A stretch of 14,994 nt of DNA from Planctomycetota bacterium (GTDB taxonomy: Bacteria; Planctomycetota; Planctomycetia; Pirellulales; Lacipirellulaceae). Position 1 is the stretch's first letter. Each line of letters opens with the position of its first letter. Positions 1 through 9,349 of this stretch are shown piece after piece. The stretch is taken from positions 1 through 14,994 of the forward strand of contig JBCCXZ010000076.1 in assembly GCA_039190745.1 (NCBI GenBank), given 5' to 3'. The position numbers and the translations under genes were made by a program. The notes under the pieces are model-generated. The model was not told the origin of the DNA. It saw nothing but the letters and a program-made list of their open reading frames with translations, and searched no databases.

Positions 1-1299
1 CTCGAAGTGGCCGACGGCGTGTTCCGCGTCATCAGCACCAACGGCGACACGCACCTCGGCGGCGACGACTTCGACGAGGCGCTCATCAACCACGTCGCGG
101 CCGAGTTCCAGAAGGAGCAGGGCATCGACCTCCGCCAGGACCAGATGGCCCTGCAGCGGCTGCAAGAGGCGTGCGAGAAGGCCAAGAAGGAGCTCAGCAG
201 CGCGCAGTCGACCGACATTAACCTGCCGTTCATCACCGCCGACGCCAACGGGCCGAAGCACTTGCAGCTGAACATCACCCGCGCCGAGTTTGAGAAGCTG
301 GTCGACGACTTGGTCGAGCGCGCTCGCGGCCCGGTGCTTAAGGCGATGGACGACGCCAAGCTGAAGCCTTCGGAGATCGACGAGGTCGTGCTCGTCGGCG
401 GCAGCACCCGCATCCCCAAGGTGCAGGAAGTCGTCAAAGAGATCTTCGGCAAAGACCCCCACAAGGGCGTGAACCCCGACGAGGTGGTCGCCATCGGCGC
501 GGCCATCCAGGGCGGCGTCCTCTCGGGCGAGGTGCAGGACATCCTGCTGCTGGACGTCACCCCGCTCAGCCTCGGCATCGAGACCCTCGGCGGCGTGATG
601 ACCAAGCTCGTCGAGCGCAACACGACGATCCCCACCGAGCGGAAACAGGTCTTCAGCACCGCCGACGACAACCAGGGTGCGGTCACCGTCCGCGTGTTCC
701 AGGGCGAGCGCGAGATGTGCGCCGACAACCGGCTGCTCGACCAGTTCAACCTGGAGGGCATCCCGCCCGCGCCGCGGGGCGTGCCGCAGATCGAGGTCAA
801 GTTCGACATCGACGCCAACGGCATCCTCAACGTCGCGGCCAAGGACCTCGGCACGGGCAAGGAGCACACGATTAAGATCGAGCAGTCGAGCGGCCTCTCC
901 GAGGAAGAGATCGACCGCATGCAGAAAGACGCCGACGCCCACGCCGACGAGGACAAGAAGAAGCGTGAGCTGATCGAGGCCCGCAACGAGGCGGAGAGCC
1001 GCTGCTACCAGCTCGAGAAGATGATCAAGGAGCAGGGCGACAGCCTCAGCGACGTCGACAAGGGCTCGCTCGAAGCGGCGATCACCAAGGTCCGCGAGGC
1101 GGCGGGGGGCGAAGACGCCGACGCGATCAAGAGCGCCATCGGCGAGCTGGAGCAGGCCTCCCACGCGATGAGCGAAGCCCTCTACAAAGCCGCGGCCGCC
1201 GAAGGCGGCGACCCCGCGGCCGCGGGCGGCGAAGCCGGCGGCTCCGACCCCTCAGCCGACGACGACGCGATCGACGCGGAGTTCGAGGTGAAGAACTGA
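1..1299 (+). CDS. dnaK: Molecular chaperone DnaK (Hsp70), 5'-truncated by the window edge
   Basis: Frame is open from base 1 (LEVADGVF...). Hsp70 motifs [75 protein letters not shown] and C-terminal IDAEFE. TGA at 1297-1299. Confidence 0.99.
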
Positions 1300-1416
1300 A
1301 CCCCACGTCAAGGCACCATCAGGGGACACTAGACAAGACCAACACTGTGAACGTGCTGAGAGGGATCTGCTGATAATTTCTTACTGATACGTCTTATCCT
1401 GCAGAGGCGGAGAGCT

Positions 1417-2400
1417 TTGCCAGTCGATCTTTCTAGGACGCTTGTGATCGGTGTCACGTCGAGTGCTCTGTTCGACATGACGGAGCCGAACCGTGTCTTC
1501 GAAGAGCAGGGTTTGGATGCGTACACTGAGTATCAGCTCAAACACGCCAACGATCCACTTCCGGCTGGCACGGGTCTGCCGCTTGTGAAGGCCGTATTGC
1601 GGCTCAACGAGGAGGCATCTGGCAATCCTAATTCGACTCGTCGCACAGATGTCGTTGTCGCGTCGAAGAATGACCCGTCAACTAGCGAGAGACTGTACCA
1701 CTCTATCGAGCACCATGGCCTCGACGGAATCCAGCGTTCGTTTCTGGTTGGTGGCCAGCCGGTAGCCCCATACCTTGGTGCTTTCTCTGTAGACTTGTTC
1801 CTCTCAACTTCGCACAGCGATGTTGAATCGGCTCTCGATGTCGGGATTCCAGCAGCCGTTGTGTATGCGGCACCAGAGAATCCGACGGAGGAGATAGACC
1901 AAATCAGAATAGCATTCGACGGCGATGCCGTGCTGTTTTCCGACGAGTCTGAGGCAATCTACAAGAAGTATGGTTTGGGCAGGTTTATCGAACACGAGAC
2001 TTCCAAGGCCAATGTGCCATTGCCTGAGGGGCCATTCTTCAAACTGCTGAAGGTCCTTTCATTCCTTCAGAATGATCCCGCTTACCTTGAGCGCCCACCT
2101 GTGCGTATTGCGCTTGTCACAGCTCGAAGCATGCCTTCCCACAAACGCGTGATCAAGACTCTCAAGCTCTGGGGTGTGAGAGTAGACGAAGCGTTCTTCA
2201 TGGGAGGTGTGCCGAAGACCAAGGTTCTCAGTGCCTTCAAACCACACATATTCTTTGATGATCAGGACGACCATTGTCAGCCGGCTTCTGTTGAGGTGCC
2301 GACTGCGCGCGTGCCAAACAACCTAACAGACCCGCAGCGCCAGCTATTTGCAGAAAGACCCGAAGAAGTAGGGGCTCTTGCCAGACGAGCACCCCGATGA
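1417..2400 (+). CDS. 5'-nucleotidase (HAD-type, cN-I/PF06189-like family)
   Basis: Motifs LVIGVTSSALFD, IRIAFDGDAVLFSDESE (HAD DxD), RIALVTAR, WGVRVDEAFFMGG, FKPHIFFDDQ. TTG start preceded by GGAG. GC about 52-57% in two hand-counted lines, visibly lower than dnaK/clpB. Confidence 0.9.
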   Translation: MPVDLSRTLVIGVTSSALFDMTEPNRVFEEQGLDAYTEYQLKHANDPLPAGTGLPLVKAVLRLNEEASGNPNSTRRTDVVVASKNDPSTSERLYHSIEHHGLDGIQRSFLVGGQPVAPYLGAFSVDLFLSTSHSDVESALDVGIPAAVVYAAPENPTEEIDQIRIAFDGDAVLFSDESEAIYKKYGLGRFIEHETSKANVPLPEGPFFKLLKVLSFLQNDPAYLERPPVRIALVTARSMPSHKRVIKTLKLWGVRVDEAFFMGGVPKTKVLSAFKPHIFFDDQDDHCQPASVEVPTARVPNNLTDPQRQLFAERPEEVGALARRAPR

Positions 2401-2455
2401 CTACCAGCAAGTGGCTCCGTAGACAAGCAATGGTGTGGGGGAAAGGTAGGGCAAA

Positions 2456-2513
2456 ATACCATTTCACTTCGACAAGCTTTCGATCAAGTCCCAGAAGGCC
2501 GTGCAGCGGTCGC
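2456..2513 (+). pseudogene. Decayed duplicate of the first 19 codons of clpB
   Basis: ATACCATTTCACTTCGACAAGCTTTCGATCAAGTCCCAGAAGGCCGTGCAGCGGTCGC matches clpB 3028-3085 at 49/58 nt without gaps. Translates IPFHFDKLSIKSQKAVQRS versus [22 protein letters not shown] is replaced by ATA. Confidence 0.92.
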
Positions 2514-2581
2514 TTCCGCTCCACGGCGTTCCCCGCCCTTGTTAACGCGTGGCTAAGTGAAGGTGCCTCGGCTGTGCTTGC

Positions 2582-2610
2582 TTGAAACCAGCCACTTATA
2601 GTGATAATAT
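2582..2610 (+). promoter_or_regulatory. Possible sigma70-type promoter facing clpB
   Basis: TTGAAA (2582-2587), N17, TAATAT (2605-2610) in an AT-rich patch about 420 nt upstream of clpB. Confidence 0.3.
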
Positions 2611-2990
2611 GTACAGTAATTTGAGCGCAGTGCGTAGATCGGTGATCAGACGTTAGGCGTAAGGAACAACGAAGCAGAAGGAGAATAGCCGCGATGCTAC
2701 GCATCGCTGGATGACCCGAGGGAAGCCCGCGCCTTCGAATCACGAACACGACACGAATGAACGTAAACGCAGAGCGTATTGACCAGCATCAACTCGATTC
2801 ACCCTCACGAATAAGGTGCAGCAAAGAACCCGGAGTCGACAAAACACCTGACTTATGTCCGCCGAGAGCGTGTTCCACGTGTTTCGCGCCAAAACGATCC
2901 AAGAAACCACGAGAAACCCCACGCGGACGCGGCCGTTTTGGCCTAACACGACGCCCGGCCGGTCGCCAGATGTCCCGACAGATCGGAGTT

Positions 2991-3027
2991 CCACTCACTA
3001 CCAACCACTCACCCCAACTTCACTTCT
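2991..3027 (+). repeat. Degenerate heptamer repeat in the clpB leader
   Basis: CCACTCA-CTACCAA-CCACTCA-CCCCAAC-TTCACTT directly before the ATG. G-free leader with no Shine-Dalgarno. Confidence 0.5.
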
Positions 3028-5670
3028 ATGCCATTCCGTTTCGACAAGCTGACGATCAAGGCCCAGGAGGCCGTGCAGCGGGCGCACGAGTTGGCGGCCG
3101 CGGCGGGCAATCCCCAGATCGACCCGCTGCACCTGCTCGCGGGCTTGTTGGACGAGAACGAAGGCGTGGTCCGGCCGCTGCTGGACAAGATCGGCGCCAA
3201 CCGCGACCAGCTCGCGCAGATCGTCGAGGCCGAGACGAAGCGGCTCGTCTCCTCCTCGGCGAGGAACCCGCCGCAGGTCTCCGCCGAGCTGGCCCGCGTG
3301 TTCGAGGCCGCTCAGCAGACCGCCGGAACGATGGGCGACGAATTCGTCTCCACCGAGCACCTGCTGCTGGCGCTCACCAAAGAGAAATCCTCCGCGCAGG
3401 ACACGCTGAAGCTCAACGCGATCGACGAGAAGGGCATCCTCGAAGCGCTACAGTCGGTCCGCGGTTCAGCCCGAGTGACCGATCAGAACCCCGAAGAGAA
3501 GTTCCAGGCGCTCGAGAAGTACGGCATCGACCTCGTCGCCCGCGCGGAGCAGGGCAAGCTCGACCCGGTAATCGGCCGCGACTCCGAGATCCGCCGTGTC
3601 GTGCAGGTCCTCTCTCGCCGCACGAAGAACAACCCCGTGCTGATCGGCGAACCCGGCGTCGGCAAGACGGCGATCGCCGAGGGGCTCGCCCTGCGGATCG
3701 TGCAGAGCGACGTGCCCGAGAGCCTGAAGAACAAGCGGGTGATCGCGCTCGACATGGGCGCCCTCATTGCAGGCACCAAGTTCCGCGGCGAGTTCGAGGA
3801 GCGGCTCAAGGCCGTGCTGCGCGAGGTGGAAGACTCGCAGGGCGCCGTGATCCTGTTCATCGACGAGCTGCACACCGTGGTCGGCGCCGGGGCGGCCGAG
3901 GGCGGCAACGACGCGGCCAACCTGCTCAAGCCGGCGCTCGCCCGCGGCGAGCTGCGGTGCATCGGCGCCACCACCCTCGACGAGTACCGCAAGTACATCG
4001 AGAAGGACGCGGCCCTCGAGCGGCGGTTCCAGCCGGTGATGGTCGGCGAACCGAGCGTCGAGGACACGATCGCGATCCTCCGCGGGCTCAAGCCGCGTTA
4101 CGAGGCTCACCACAAGGGCGTGCGGATCAAAGACTCAGCGCTGGTTGCCGCCGCGGAGCTCTCGCACCGTTACATTGCCGATCGGTTCCTGCCGGACAAG
4201 GCGATCGACCTGATGGACGAGGCCACGAGCCGGCTGGCGATGGAGCTGCAGAGCGTGCCAACCGAGATCGACGAGGTCCAGCGGCGGCTCGTGCAGCTGG
4301 AGCTCGCCGCGCGGCAGCTCGCCGAGGAGACCGAGGAGCACGCACAGCAGCGGCTGGCCGACGTGAACGCCGAAGCGGAAGATCTTCGCCGCGAGCTGGC
4401 CAACCTCCGCGAGCAGTGGGAGACGGAGAAGCTCGGCGTGGGCGACGTAGCTTCGGTGCGTGAGAAGCTTGAGCGGGCAACGCATGAGTACCAGAAGCAG
4501 GCCGCCGCGATCAACGACCGGCAATCCAGCGGCGAGCCGGTGACCGAGGACCAGTACCAGGCGCTATACGAGCTCGACACGCAGCGGAAGAACCTGGAAG
4601 CGCAGCTCGCGAAGATCGAGGCCGACTCGCCCGCCGCGGACGCGGAGGAGCCGACCGGACGCCGGCTGCTGCGGCAGGAGGTGGGGCCTGAGGAGATCGC
4701 CGAGGTGGTGAGCGCTTGGACCGGCGTGCCGGTCACCCGGATGATGGAGACCGAGCGGGCCAAACTGCTGGTGCTGGAAGAGCGACTGCACCAGCGGGTC
4801 GTGGGGCAAGACGAGGCCGTGGCCGCGGTCGCGAACGCCGTGCGCCGCAGCCGCAGCGGCCTGCAGGACCCCAACCGGCCGATCGGCTCGTTCCTCTTCT
4901 GCGGCCCGACCGGCGTGGGCAAGACCGAGCTGTGCAAGGCATTGGCCGAGACGCTGTTCGACGATGAGAACTCGATGGTGCGGATCGACATGAGCGAGTT
5001 CATGGAGAAGCACACTGTGAGCCGGCTTATCGGGGCGCCCCCGGGCTACGTGGGTTACGAGGAGGGGGGCAAGCTCACCGAAGCGGTGCGGCGGCGGCCG
5101 TACTCGGTCGTGCTGCTCGACGAGATCGAGAAGGCCCACCCGGACGTGTTCAATATCCTTCTGCAGGTGCTCGACGACGGCCGGCTGACCGACAACCACG
5201 GCCACACGGTGGACTTCACCAACACGATTGTGGTGATGACTTCCAACGTCGGCAGTCAGCTGATCCAGCAGGTGACCGAAGAAGGCGGCTCCGAAGAAGA
5301 ACTACAGAACGCTCTGCAAGAAAGCCTGCGAGCTCGGTTCCTGCCGGAGTTTTTGAACCGAATCGACGAGACGATCGTGTTCCACCCGTTGTCGCGGGAT
5401 CAGGTTTCGCGGATCGTCGACATCCAGCTCGACCACCTGTCCAAGCTGCTCGAAGCAAAGGGGCTGCAACTGGTGGTGACCGGCAGGGCGCGGGCCCGGA
5501 TCGCGGCGGACGGGTACGACCCGGCGTACGGCGCCCGGCCGGTGAAGCGGGTGCTGCAGCAGTCGGTGCAAAACCCGCTGGCGACGGAGCTGCTGAAGGA
5601 AGAGTACCCGGAAGGGGCGACCGTGGAGGTCGGCTTCGACGGGGATGGGTTTACCTTCGGTAAAATCTAA
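3028..5670 (+). CDS. clpB: ATP-dependent disaggregase ClpB
   Basis: Clp N-domain, [10 protein letters not shown], Walker [20 protein letters not shown], Walker B LFIDELH, long coiled-coil M domain, second AAA module GPTGVGKTE / [11 protein letters not shown] / [13 protein letters not shown] / [14 protein letters not shown]. 880 aa. Confidence 0.98.
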
Positions 5671-5674
5671 GGTT

Positions 5675-5736
5675 GAAGATTCAAGATTGCAGATCGCTTT
5701 GTGTCTGATTTCTGCAATCTGCAATCTGCAATCTTC
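5675..5736. terminator. Heptamer-built inverted repeat between convergent genes; probable bidirectional terminator or stabiliser
   Basis: GAAGATTCAAGATTGCAGA (5675-5693) pairs 17/19 with TCTGCAATCTGCAATCTTC (5718-5736). The right side is a tandem (TCTGCAA)x3 at 5711-5731. Confidence 0.65.
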
Positions 5737-5749
5737 GATCTGAGGTTCC

Positions 5750-8298: not shown

Positions 8299-8420
8299 TA
8301 GAATCACGCCGACCGCTCGGCCGTGGTAAGGGGTGAACGACAACCCAGGGCTGCGGCCCGCGTTTCGCTTCGCTCTCGCGGGCCTTGCCCTGGGCTACAC
8401 GCCTTCGCCCCTCCGGGGCG
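8299..8420. repeat. Single arm of the multi-hairpin repeat, family B
   Basis: TAGAATC..ACCGCTCGGCCG..AACCCAGGG-ctgc-GGCCCG..CGGGCCT-tgc-CCTGGGCTA-N9-GCCCCTccgGGGC. Same motif order and N9 spacing as 9235-9348. Confidence 0.85.
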
Positions 8421-8882: not shown

Positions 8883-8967
8883 GGACGGGTGGCAGAGTGG
8901 TCGAATGCACCGGTCTTGAAAACCGGCGATGGGCAACCATCCGGGGGTTCGAATCCCTCCCCGTCCG
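8883..8967 (+). tRNA. tRNA-Ser (anticodon TGA)
   Basis: Acceptor GGACGGG/CCCGTCC, D arm TGGCAGAGTGGTCGAATGC, anticodon arm CCGGT-CTTGAAA-ACCGG, long variable arm GATGG-GCAA-CCATC, T arm GGGGG-TTCGAAT-CCCTC, discriminator G. CCA is not encoded. Confidence 0.98.
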
Positions 8968-8976
8968 CTTTGAGAA

Positions 8977-9058: not shown

Positions 9059-9349
9059 TGCCCCAACGGGGCTAGACGCCGTAGCCCAGGGTCAGCCTGC
9101 CGTAGGCAGGCGCCACCCTGGGTTTCTGGTCTGAATCGAACACGTCCGAGCGGACTGCGCCGCCGCAATCGGCTCGTCGCCGAGGACGCCCCAAACCGCG
9201 GAGCATTTCGGCCTCGATCGACCGCCGAACGCAATAGAATCCACCGCTCGGCCGCTTCTATTGCCGGGCTGAGAACCCAGGGTGGCGGCCCGGGGCGCTG
9301 CGCTGCCCGGGCCTGATCCTGGGCTATGGTGTTTAGCCCCTTCAGGGCA
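9059..9349. mobile_element. Non-coding REPIN/MITE-like element with long inverted arms, family B full copy
   Basis: Left arm 9059-9124 and right arm 9274-9349 are inverted. CGCCACCCTGGGTT/AACCCAGGGTGGCG pair exactly. 9068-9095 versus 9313-9340 gives 24/28 Watson-Crick pairs plus 4 G-T. Terminal mini-hairpins GCCCCAACGGGGC and GCCCCTTCAGGGC. Mobility is inferred. Confidence 0.8.

Follow-up and report, generated by a model that had tools for sequence, protein, structure and literature searches.

We analyzed one whole contig of 14,994 nucleotides (nt; the window, C76, JBCCXZ010000076.1) from the genome of a Planctomycetota bacterium of the family Lacipirellulaceae (GCA_039190745.1; 3.89 Mb, 95% complete, 125 contigs) and found a short, decayed copy of the start of the chaperone gene clpB in the interval between dnaK and clpB. 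The gene order is dnaK, a PF06189 5′-nucleotidase gene, the 58-nt copy (hereafter the relic), a 514-nt spacer, and clpB. The locus is probably, though well short of certainly, a hybrid in which two alleles of a variable slot were combined by one homologous and one illegitimate crossover. An earlier, sequence-only reading of this DNA had taken the relic for a scar of cargo exchange, and this remains the best reading of the evidence that we collected from sequence comparisons.

The relic and the slot of the congener

The relic (2456–2513; coordinates are on the forward strand of the window) is a copy of codons 1–19 of clpB. It aligns to clpB positions 3028–3085 without gaps at 49 of 58 sites (84%; blastn E 3e-10), at an offset of 572 nt. 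Its left edge is the position of the clpB start codon, where ATG has changed to ATA, its right edge falls after codon 19, and seven of the nine differences are a G or C in clpB and an A or T in the relic. The alignment confirmed these points, all made by the sequence-only reading, as well as the location of the relic 55 nt behind a nucleotidase gene of lower GC content (GC at third codon positions, 0.57 versus 0.90 in clpB). When the clpB 58-mer was compared with the whole genome on both strands (7,769,612 positions), the best scores were 58 for clpB itself and 49 for the relic, and the next-best match of only 37 rules out a chance origin.

Six of the eight changed codons are nonsynonymous, compared with 27% in 1197 orthologue pairs with 7–11 differences (binomial p 0.006), which argues that the relic is a neutrally decayed remnant and no foreign working allele. 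Two of the changes affect columns that are invariant in 97/97 clpB alleles. A comparison with the clpB alleles, proposed earlier as a way to tell a foreign from a self-derived copy, detected no foreign origin: the relic is closest to the clpB of its own genome (49 matches), followed by the alleles of the congener G001 and of G025 (47 each). It agrees with its own clpB at both sites where that gene differs cleanly from the congener's, and none of its nine differences matches the congener's allele. The divergence of the relic, 0.155, is about half of the median four-fold divergence to the congener (0.26), and the relic may thus be roughly as old as the split of the two genomes.

In the congener, the slot consists of dnaK, a Y1 transposase gene flanked by repetitive extragenic palindromes (REPs; the gene is referred to as RAYT, for REP-associated tyrosine transposase), the same spacer, and clpB. 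The nucleotidase gene and the relic are absent there, and in our genome they occupy the place of the RAYT unit. The left flank of the slot is the 3′ part of dnaK (1–1299, the contig starting within the gene; HSP70 E 2e-161), which is 96.8% identical to the congener at the nucleotide level, and the similarity ends at the stop codon. The alignment resumes 2–3 nt past the relic, at about 2516, within the outer end of a REP palindrome. This junction (2514–2530) is what decay has left of the outer end of a GTAG-type REP palindrome, the one with which the congener's RAYT unit ends, and the REP family concerned has 10 copies in our genome; both sides of the junction have decayed, and its register is uncertain by a few bases. 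The right flank is an intact clpB (3028–5670; Clp_N, AAA, AAA_2, and D2-small), whose protein is 98% identical to the congener's in amino acid sequence.

We propose that two alleles of the slot would account for this arrangement: allele A, dnaK–nucleotidase–clpB, the existence of which we infer, and allele B, dnaK–[REP–RAYT–REP]–spacer–clpB, the present arrangement of the congener. A homologous crossover in one of the flanking genes would have been combined with an illegitimate joint at the opposite end, through which codon 19 of the clpB of A came to abut the outer end of the REP in B. This would leave one intact clpB with the leader of B, and the clpB start of A would have been stranded and have then decayed. 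A similarity that begins exactly at the ATG is what one expects if the alleles differ upstream of the same start. Both directions would give the same product; entry of A into B is slightly favored over entry of B into A, since the outgroup has state B. The DNA may have been taken up by transformation and the crossover may have depended on RecA, and short relics would persist, with long repeats recombining out. A ComEC-family gene is present in this genome and in G001, which shows little because the same is true of 10/14 control genomes. End-joining by Ku was considered as a source of the joint and rejected, as no Ku was found in this genome or in G001.

The sequence-only reading had offered two models: in model (a), a dnaK–nucleotidase–clpB block from a relative was anchored in dnaK and joined illegitimately, corresponding to the entry of A into B, and in model (b), positions 2514–3027 entered at the clpB 5′ end and supplied a new start. 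The second is weakened by the spacer (2514–3027), which is noncoding, forms the clpB leader, and aligns to G001 with 399 matches and 88 mismatches. Its divergence of 0.18 compares with 0.21 at clpB four-fold sites (99/479) and with the median of 0.26 over 107 gene segments, so the spacer is no new cargo and is instead common to the congener at about genome-wide divergence. We searched for homologues among 101 clpB upstream regions, from this genome, 98 family members, and 2 members of the order (G003, G085, G092, G106, and G107, with partial clpB matches, were left out), and found none for the spacer in the 99 regions other than those of the two congeners. The purine-rich 55 nt before the relic (2401–2455) had no homologue in the other 100 regions and may represent the former translation-initiation region of clpB. 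At four-fold sites, dnaK diverges from the congener by 0.069 (14/204) and groEL by 0.071 (21/294). A recent transfer of dnaK, suggested by its low divergence in comparison with clpB, was rejected with groEL being equally conserved, and codon constraint appears to explain the low value better.

As to the contents of the spacer, a Sigma-70-like promoter match at 2582–2610 has its hexamers kept in the G001 alignment; one such match was found versus 0.7 expected, which alone is not significant. Another dispersed family of palindromic repeats is represented by one copy at 2684–2712; this second family has 40 pattern matches on both strands of the genome. Rfam gave no match in 1200–3200. The leader is unusually long, and its divergence of 0.18 versus 0.26 at four-fold sites may reflect constraint.

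Cargo in the slot and relics at other gene ends

The foreign cargo gene of our genome (1417–2400, 327 amino acids; PF06189, Pfam E 8e-114) matches the PADLOC candidate phage-defence family PDC-S08 with an E value of 8e-118. The candidate is unvalidated, as PDC systems are in general (PMC10855318). The nucleotidase is rare, found in 3/120 genomes of the family and 20/401 of the class, and its two closest homologues (72% and 71%; L274 and L277) sit directly behind the type I restriction-modification (R-M) genes hsdM–hsdS in defence-like clusters. In the 93 nucleotidase loci that include flanks, no gene-end repeats were found on either side of the gene, and short repeats of other kinds were present in two.

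Across the 101 regions, dnaK precedes clpB in 82, at a spacing of 3 to 3696 nt, and is missing from the stretch covered in 19. The interval is longer than 320 nt in 33 of the 82, and lengths over 400 nt are seen in 32/81 relatives versus 3/70 neighboring co-oriented intervals (1/13, 2/47, and 0/10). The cargo comprises RAYT-REP units (8), one ParE-like toxin-antitoxin (TA) family (10), and GH43 genes (3), as well as HNH, DUF433, DUF488, Imm42, and unknown genes. It is patchy on the host tree (a quick version with 77 rows, this genome not included), and near-identical sisters differ, G123 having a RAYT and G134 an empty slot. These counts bear out the earlier claim that cargo is exchanged in this interval without a nearby integrase. 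In five relatives (G016, G064, G067, G095, and G108), the cargo is flush against clpB; this is the shape that allele A needs and supports the hybrid origin.

The expectation that clpB-start relics would recur across relatives fared worse. A search with nhmmer found none in the 100 other upstream regions (1/101, this genome alone), and a matrix scan gave 1/97 regions, again only this genome. A weak opposite-strand match to the ClpB N-terminus (E 0.01) was seen in G009, 3.3 kb upstream of clpB (L048:5396–5545). A mirror image of the relic exists at the other end of the slot: of the 78 intervals scored, four (G091, G093, G095, and G099) contain a copy of the last 10–12 codons of dnaK after a TA pair, with scores of 16.8–40.4 bits and a best reverse-strand control of 8.2, and a fifth, more decayed copy was identified by eye in G108. 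In G095 (L149:4563–5048), a thioredoxin-like open reading frame (ORF) extends from within the dnaK-end relic to a stop codon that overlaps the start of clpB.

To look beyond the slot, we scanned the ends of 2732 crudely called genes of this genome, the caller missing low-GC genes. The scan recovered the clpB relic and gave 30 matches in total, of which we judged six to be relics at single-copy host genes (clpB and five others) with cargo between the relic and the gene; visual inspection led us to discard the rest as neighboring paralogues, repeat proteins, or palindromic repeats, apart from those on C6, C40, and C75, which were left unassigned. The five are a start relic of mtfA (M90 peptidase; C20) around a PemK pair, a start relic of uvrB (C84:3225–3335) around a nucleoside hydrolase gene, an end relic of dnaA (C23:10653–10736) around a 1050-amino acid NACHT gene, an end relic of a Na/H antiporter gene (C56), and an end relic of glnA (glutamine synthetase III; C54) around LysR and Rieske genes. 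Phage_integrase (PF00589) had no match on the six relic-bearing contigs, the window among them, and 10 matches elsewhere in the genome.

Some of these relics are informative about the alleles involved. The dnaA relic retains the congener's stop codon and downstream flank, which the working dnaA end does not, and of its eight differing sites, five side with G001 and two with the working copy. The congener shows the empty site for this relic and has a dnaA-end relic of its own, further out and longer (L223:1424–1850; 83 + 316 nt), around a DUF2332 gene; the dnaA 3′-end relics of the two congeners are independent and stacked. At uvrB, the N-terminus of the relic is one codon longer, a type present in 7/19 other genomes and absent from the working uvrB of this genome, and the relic and the working start thus derive from different alleles. 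The uvrB relic shares its reading frame with the nucleoside hydrolase ORF downstream (L212:2241–3335, minus strand), a possible gene fusion. The differing sites of the antiporter relic are split 3 to 3.

In two relatives, G067 (L101) and G071 (L107), a 32-nt copy of the pheA end lies behind a mazEF-like pair, neighboring the dnaK–clpB slot and with the same boundary in both. The copies follow the pheA allele of their own genome, which suggests repeated events or conversion. The lengths of the relics range from 32 to about 400 nt. The generality of the pattern is limited by several negative results: dnaA-end relics were found in 0/40 family genomes beyond the genus, uvrB-start relics in 0/19 other genomes within the 1.5 kb examined, and gene-end relics in none of 400 kb of the congener G001, where uvrB was not found with the query used.

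We recorded further repeats in passing. In G001, the 3′ end of a deaminase gene is present in three copies of 157 nt and about 90% identity (C2:200349–203135; L232). In our genome, direct repeats of 72–235 nt lie near gene ends or starts at C6:83553–83787 and 85206–85440, C40:27362–27547 and 32214–32399, and C3:107357–107428 and 109217–109288. Downstream in the window, a long inverted repeat of short tandem units, shared with the congener, separates clpB from a convergent DUF6800 gene (5664–5747), a tRNA-Ser(TGA) gene lies at 8883–8968 on the forward strand, and REP-type palindromes are found at 8379–8419, 9059–9095, and 9308–9349.

Competing explanations of the relic

Several observations weigh against a hybrid of two slot alleles. 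Model (a) fits the congener comparison, but the donor allele that it predicts, dnaK–nucleotidase–clpB, was not found: the nucleotidase was next to dnaK or clpB in 0/117 homologous loci drawn from genomes, metagenomes, and the 401-genome class sample. The clpB relic has no foreign signature, so that only a nearly conspecific donor would fit. Neither dnaK nor clpB shows a recombination tract in the single genome pair, and one congener, G001, is behind the whole comparison. Microhomology at the joint is not legible because both sides have decayed, and homology-facilitated illegitimate recombination, the process called for, is described as rare. At the other end of the slot, the four dnaK-end relics are all at the same position and thus probably represent one ancestral event.

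The alternative that survives best is an older insertion, in which a REP–RAYT–REP–spacer unit entered at the clpB start of a dnaK–nucleotidase–clpB ancestor and duplicated 58 nt, the RAYT being later lost here and the nucleotidase and relic in the congener. The relic divergence of about half of 0.26 may date the duplication to the split, the unit between the two repeats starts with a REP end, and the geometry is the textbook case of Furuta et al. (2010; PMC2853133). The scenario requires two more independent deletions, however, and RAYT genes sit directly behind dnaK without any relic in 8/82 intervals from 6 genera; the relic also shares both sites that cleanly separate its own clpB from the congener's. 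We consider it unlikely.

A one-off local duplication or template switch of the clpB start, unrelated to the arrival of the nucleotidase, would agree with the relic being closest to its own clpB and with its presence in 1/101 regions. It leaves unexplained why the left edge is exactly at the ATG, why the right edge is where the similarity to the congener resumes, and why five other relics bracket cargo, and we regard it as quite improbable.

More doubtful still is a joint assisted by the RAYT, in which the HUH nuclease of the resident REP-RAYT nicked near a REP and transferred the strand to incoming DNA. The joint does lie within the outer REP end, and TnpA-REP is reported to cut at CT or CA near GTAG REPs and to perform strand transfer in vitro (PMC8266576). 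As read from the G001 sequence, the joint has no CT or CA on the strand in which GTAG lies 5′ to the hairpin, and no REP was noticed by eye at the relic joints of mtfA, dnaA, the antiporter, glnA, or uvrB. Furthermore, no Y1_Tnp gene (PF01797) was found in this 95%-complete genome, other transposase families not having been searched for.

A further candidate is site-specific integration at the clpB start by a trans-acting integrase, for which this start would serve as the attachment site. Such integration usually leaves attL and attR as direct repeats at the end of a gene, and the common boundary of the pheA-end relics in G067 and G071 would suit it. This explanation is already largely refuted and its chances are very slim, given the lack of an integrase match on the six relic contigs, the six or more unrelated targets in a single genome with repeats of varying length, and the absence of a second clpB relic in 100 relatives. 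Finally, we give next to no weight to an assembly chimera, which the sequence-only reading had named as a possible refutation: the genome is in 125 contigs and no unitig among those listed bridges 3050–3087, but a unitig from a public run (possibly the source sample) covers 1000–3049 with 0 differences at a depth of 9.4, the relic changes columns invariant in 97/97 alleles, and the congener has the same spacer–clpB joint.

Relation to known systems and meaning

Integrative elements replace the end of the gene that they enter and leave the displaced fragment beyond the cargo. Our locus shares the displaced gene-end fragment beyond the cargo and differs in having no integrase, no fixed attachment site, and many unrelated targets. 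Homology-facilitated illegitimate recombination has, to our knowledge, never been tested in planctomycetes. It has been invoked for the Vibrio type VI secretion system and for Rhs orphan arrays (PMC5361080, PMC6382021), and as described there it shares with the hybrid that we propose one homology anchor, one illegitimate joint, displaced gene ends, and stacked events, seen here at dnaA. The differences are that our anchors are housekeeping genes and that the decayed joint shows no legible microhomology.

Furuta et al. described R-M systems that had inserted without any mobile element and had duplicated a long target sequence of variable length. The duplication often takes in a start or stop codon and leaves the target gene intact, and most cases are from competent species. 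The locus shares with this class a direct repeat of more than 30 bp (58 nt, 84%) and an insert of less than 20 kb with no integrase match on the contig. It differs in that the congener keeps the 514 nt between the repeats, with other cargo and no empty site at clpB, whereas the empty site is found for this genome's dnaA relic. The known cargo is R-M, and here it consists of the nucleotidase, TA pairs, a NACHT protein, and metabolic genes; there is no R-M cargo at clpB, though type I R-M clusters harbor the closest homologues of the nucleotidase. In its workings the clpB case resembles this class, but it lacks both the empty site and the R-M cargo, and we class it as a scar of this kind at a hotspot.

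Oliveira et al. (2017; PMC5635113) found mobile elements to be missing from half of the transfer hotspots of bacteria and proposed that recombination in the flanking core genes drives these; the minimal mobile elements of Neisseria express the same idea (PMC1797815). As these systems are described, the dnaK–clpB slot shares with them alternative small cargoes at one syntenic position, conserved flanks, and no integrase. A double homologous crossover leaves no relic, however, whereas here one end is illegitimate, and raised recombination of dnaK or clpB was not seen in the one genome pair, where dnaK diverges as groEL does. In the literature, we found no description of the dnaK–clpB slot of planctomycetes, the matches listed concerning other matters by title and abstract, and no paper joining target duplication, toxin-antitoxin, Planctomycetes, and horizontal gene transfer.

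The locus illustrates a described process and is no new system; what it adds is a measured hotspot, scars at both ends of one slot in different lineages, and several such scars in one genome. The first entry of new cargo into slots free of mobile elements is poorly documented, and the locus provides a natural record of it. The two-allele evidence at uvrB makes recombination a more likely route than local duplication or a process specific to restriction enzymes, and the class of insertions with long target duplications is extended to cargo other than R-M. A wider proposal, which we hold to be distinctly unlikely, is that this lineage may routinely acquire genes at housekeeping gene ends by an integrase-free route, which would have left six or more scars in a single genome and independent, stacked dnaA scars in both congeners, and that the resident REP-RAYT may supply the nonhomologous joint at dnaK–clpB. 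If that were true, domesticated RAYT nucleases would have a role in capturing defence cargo.

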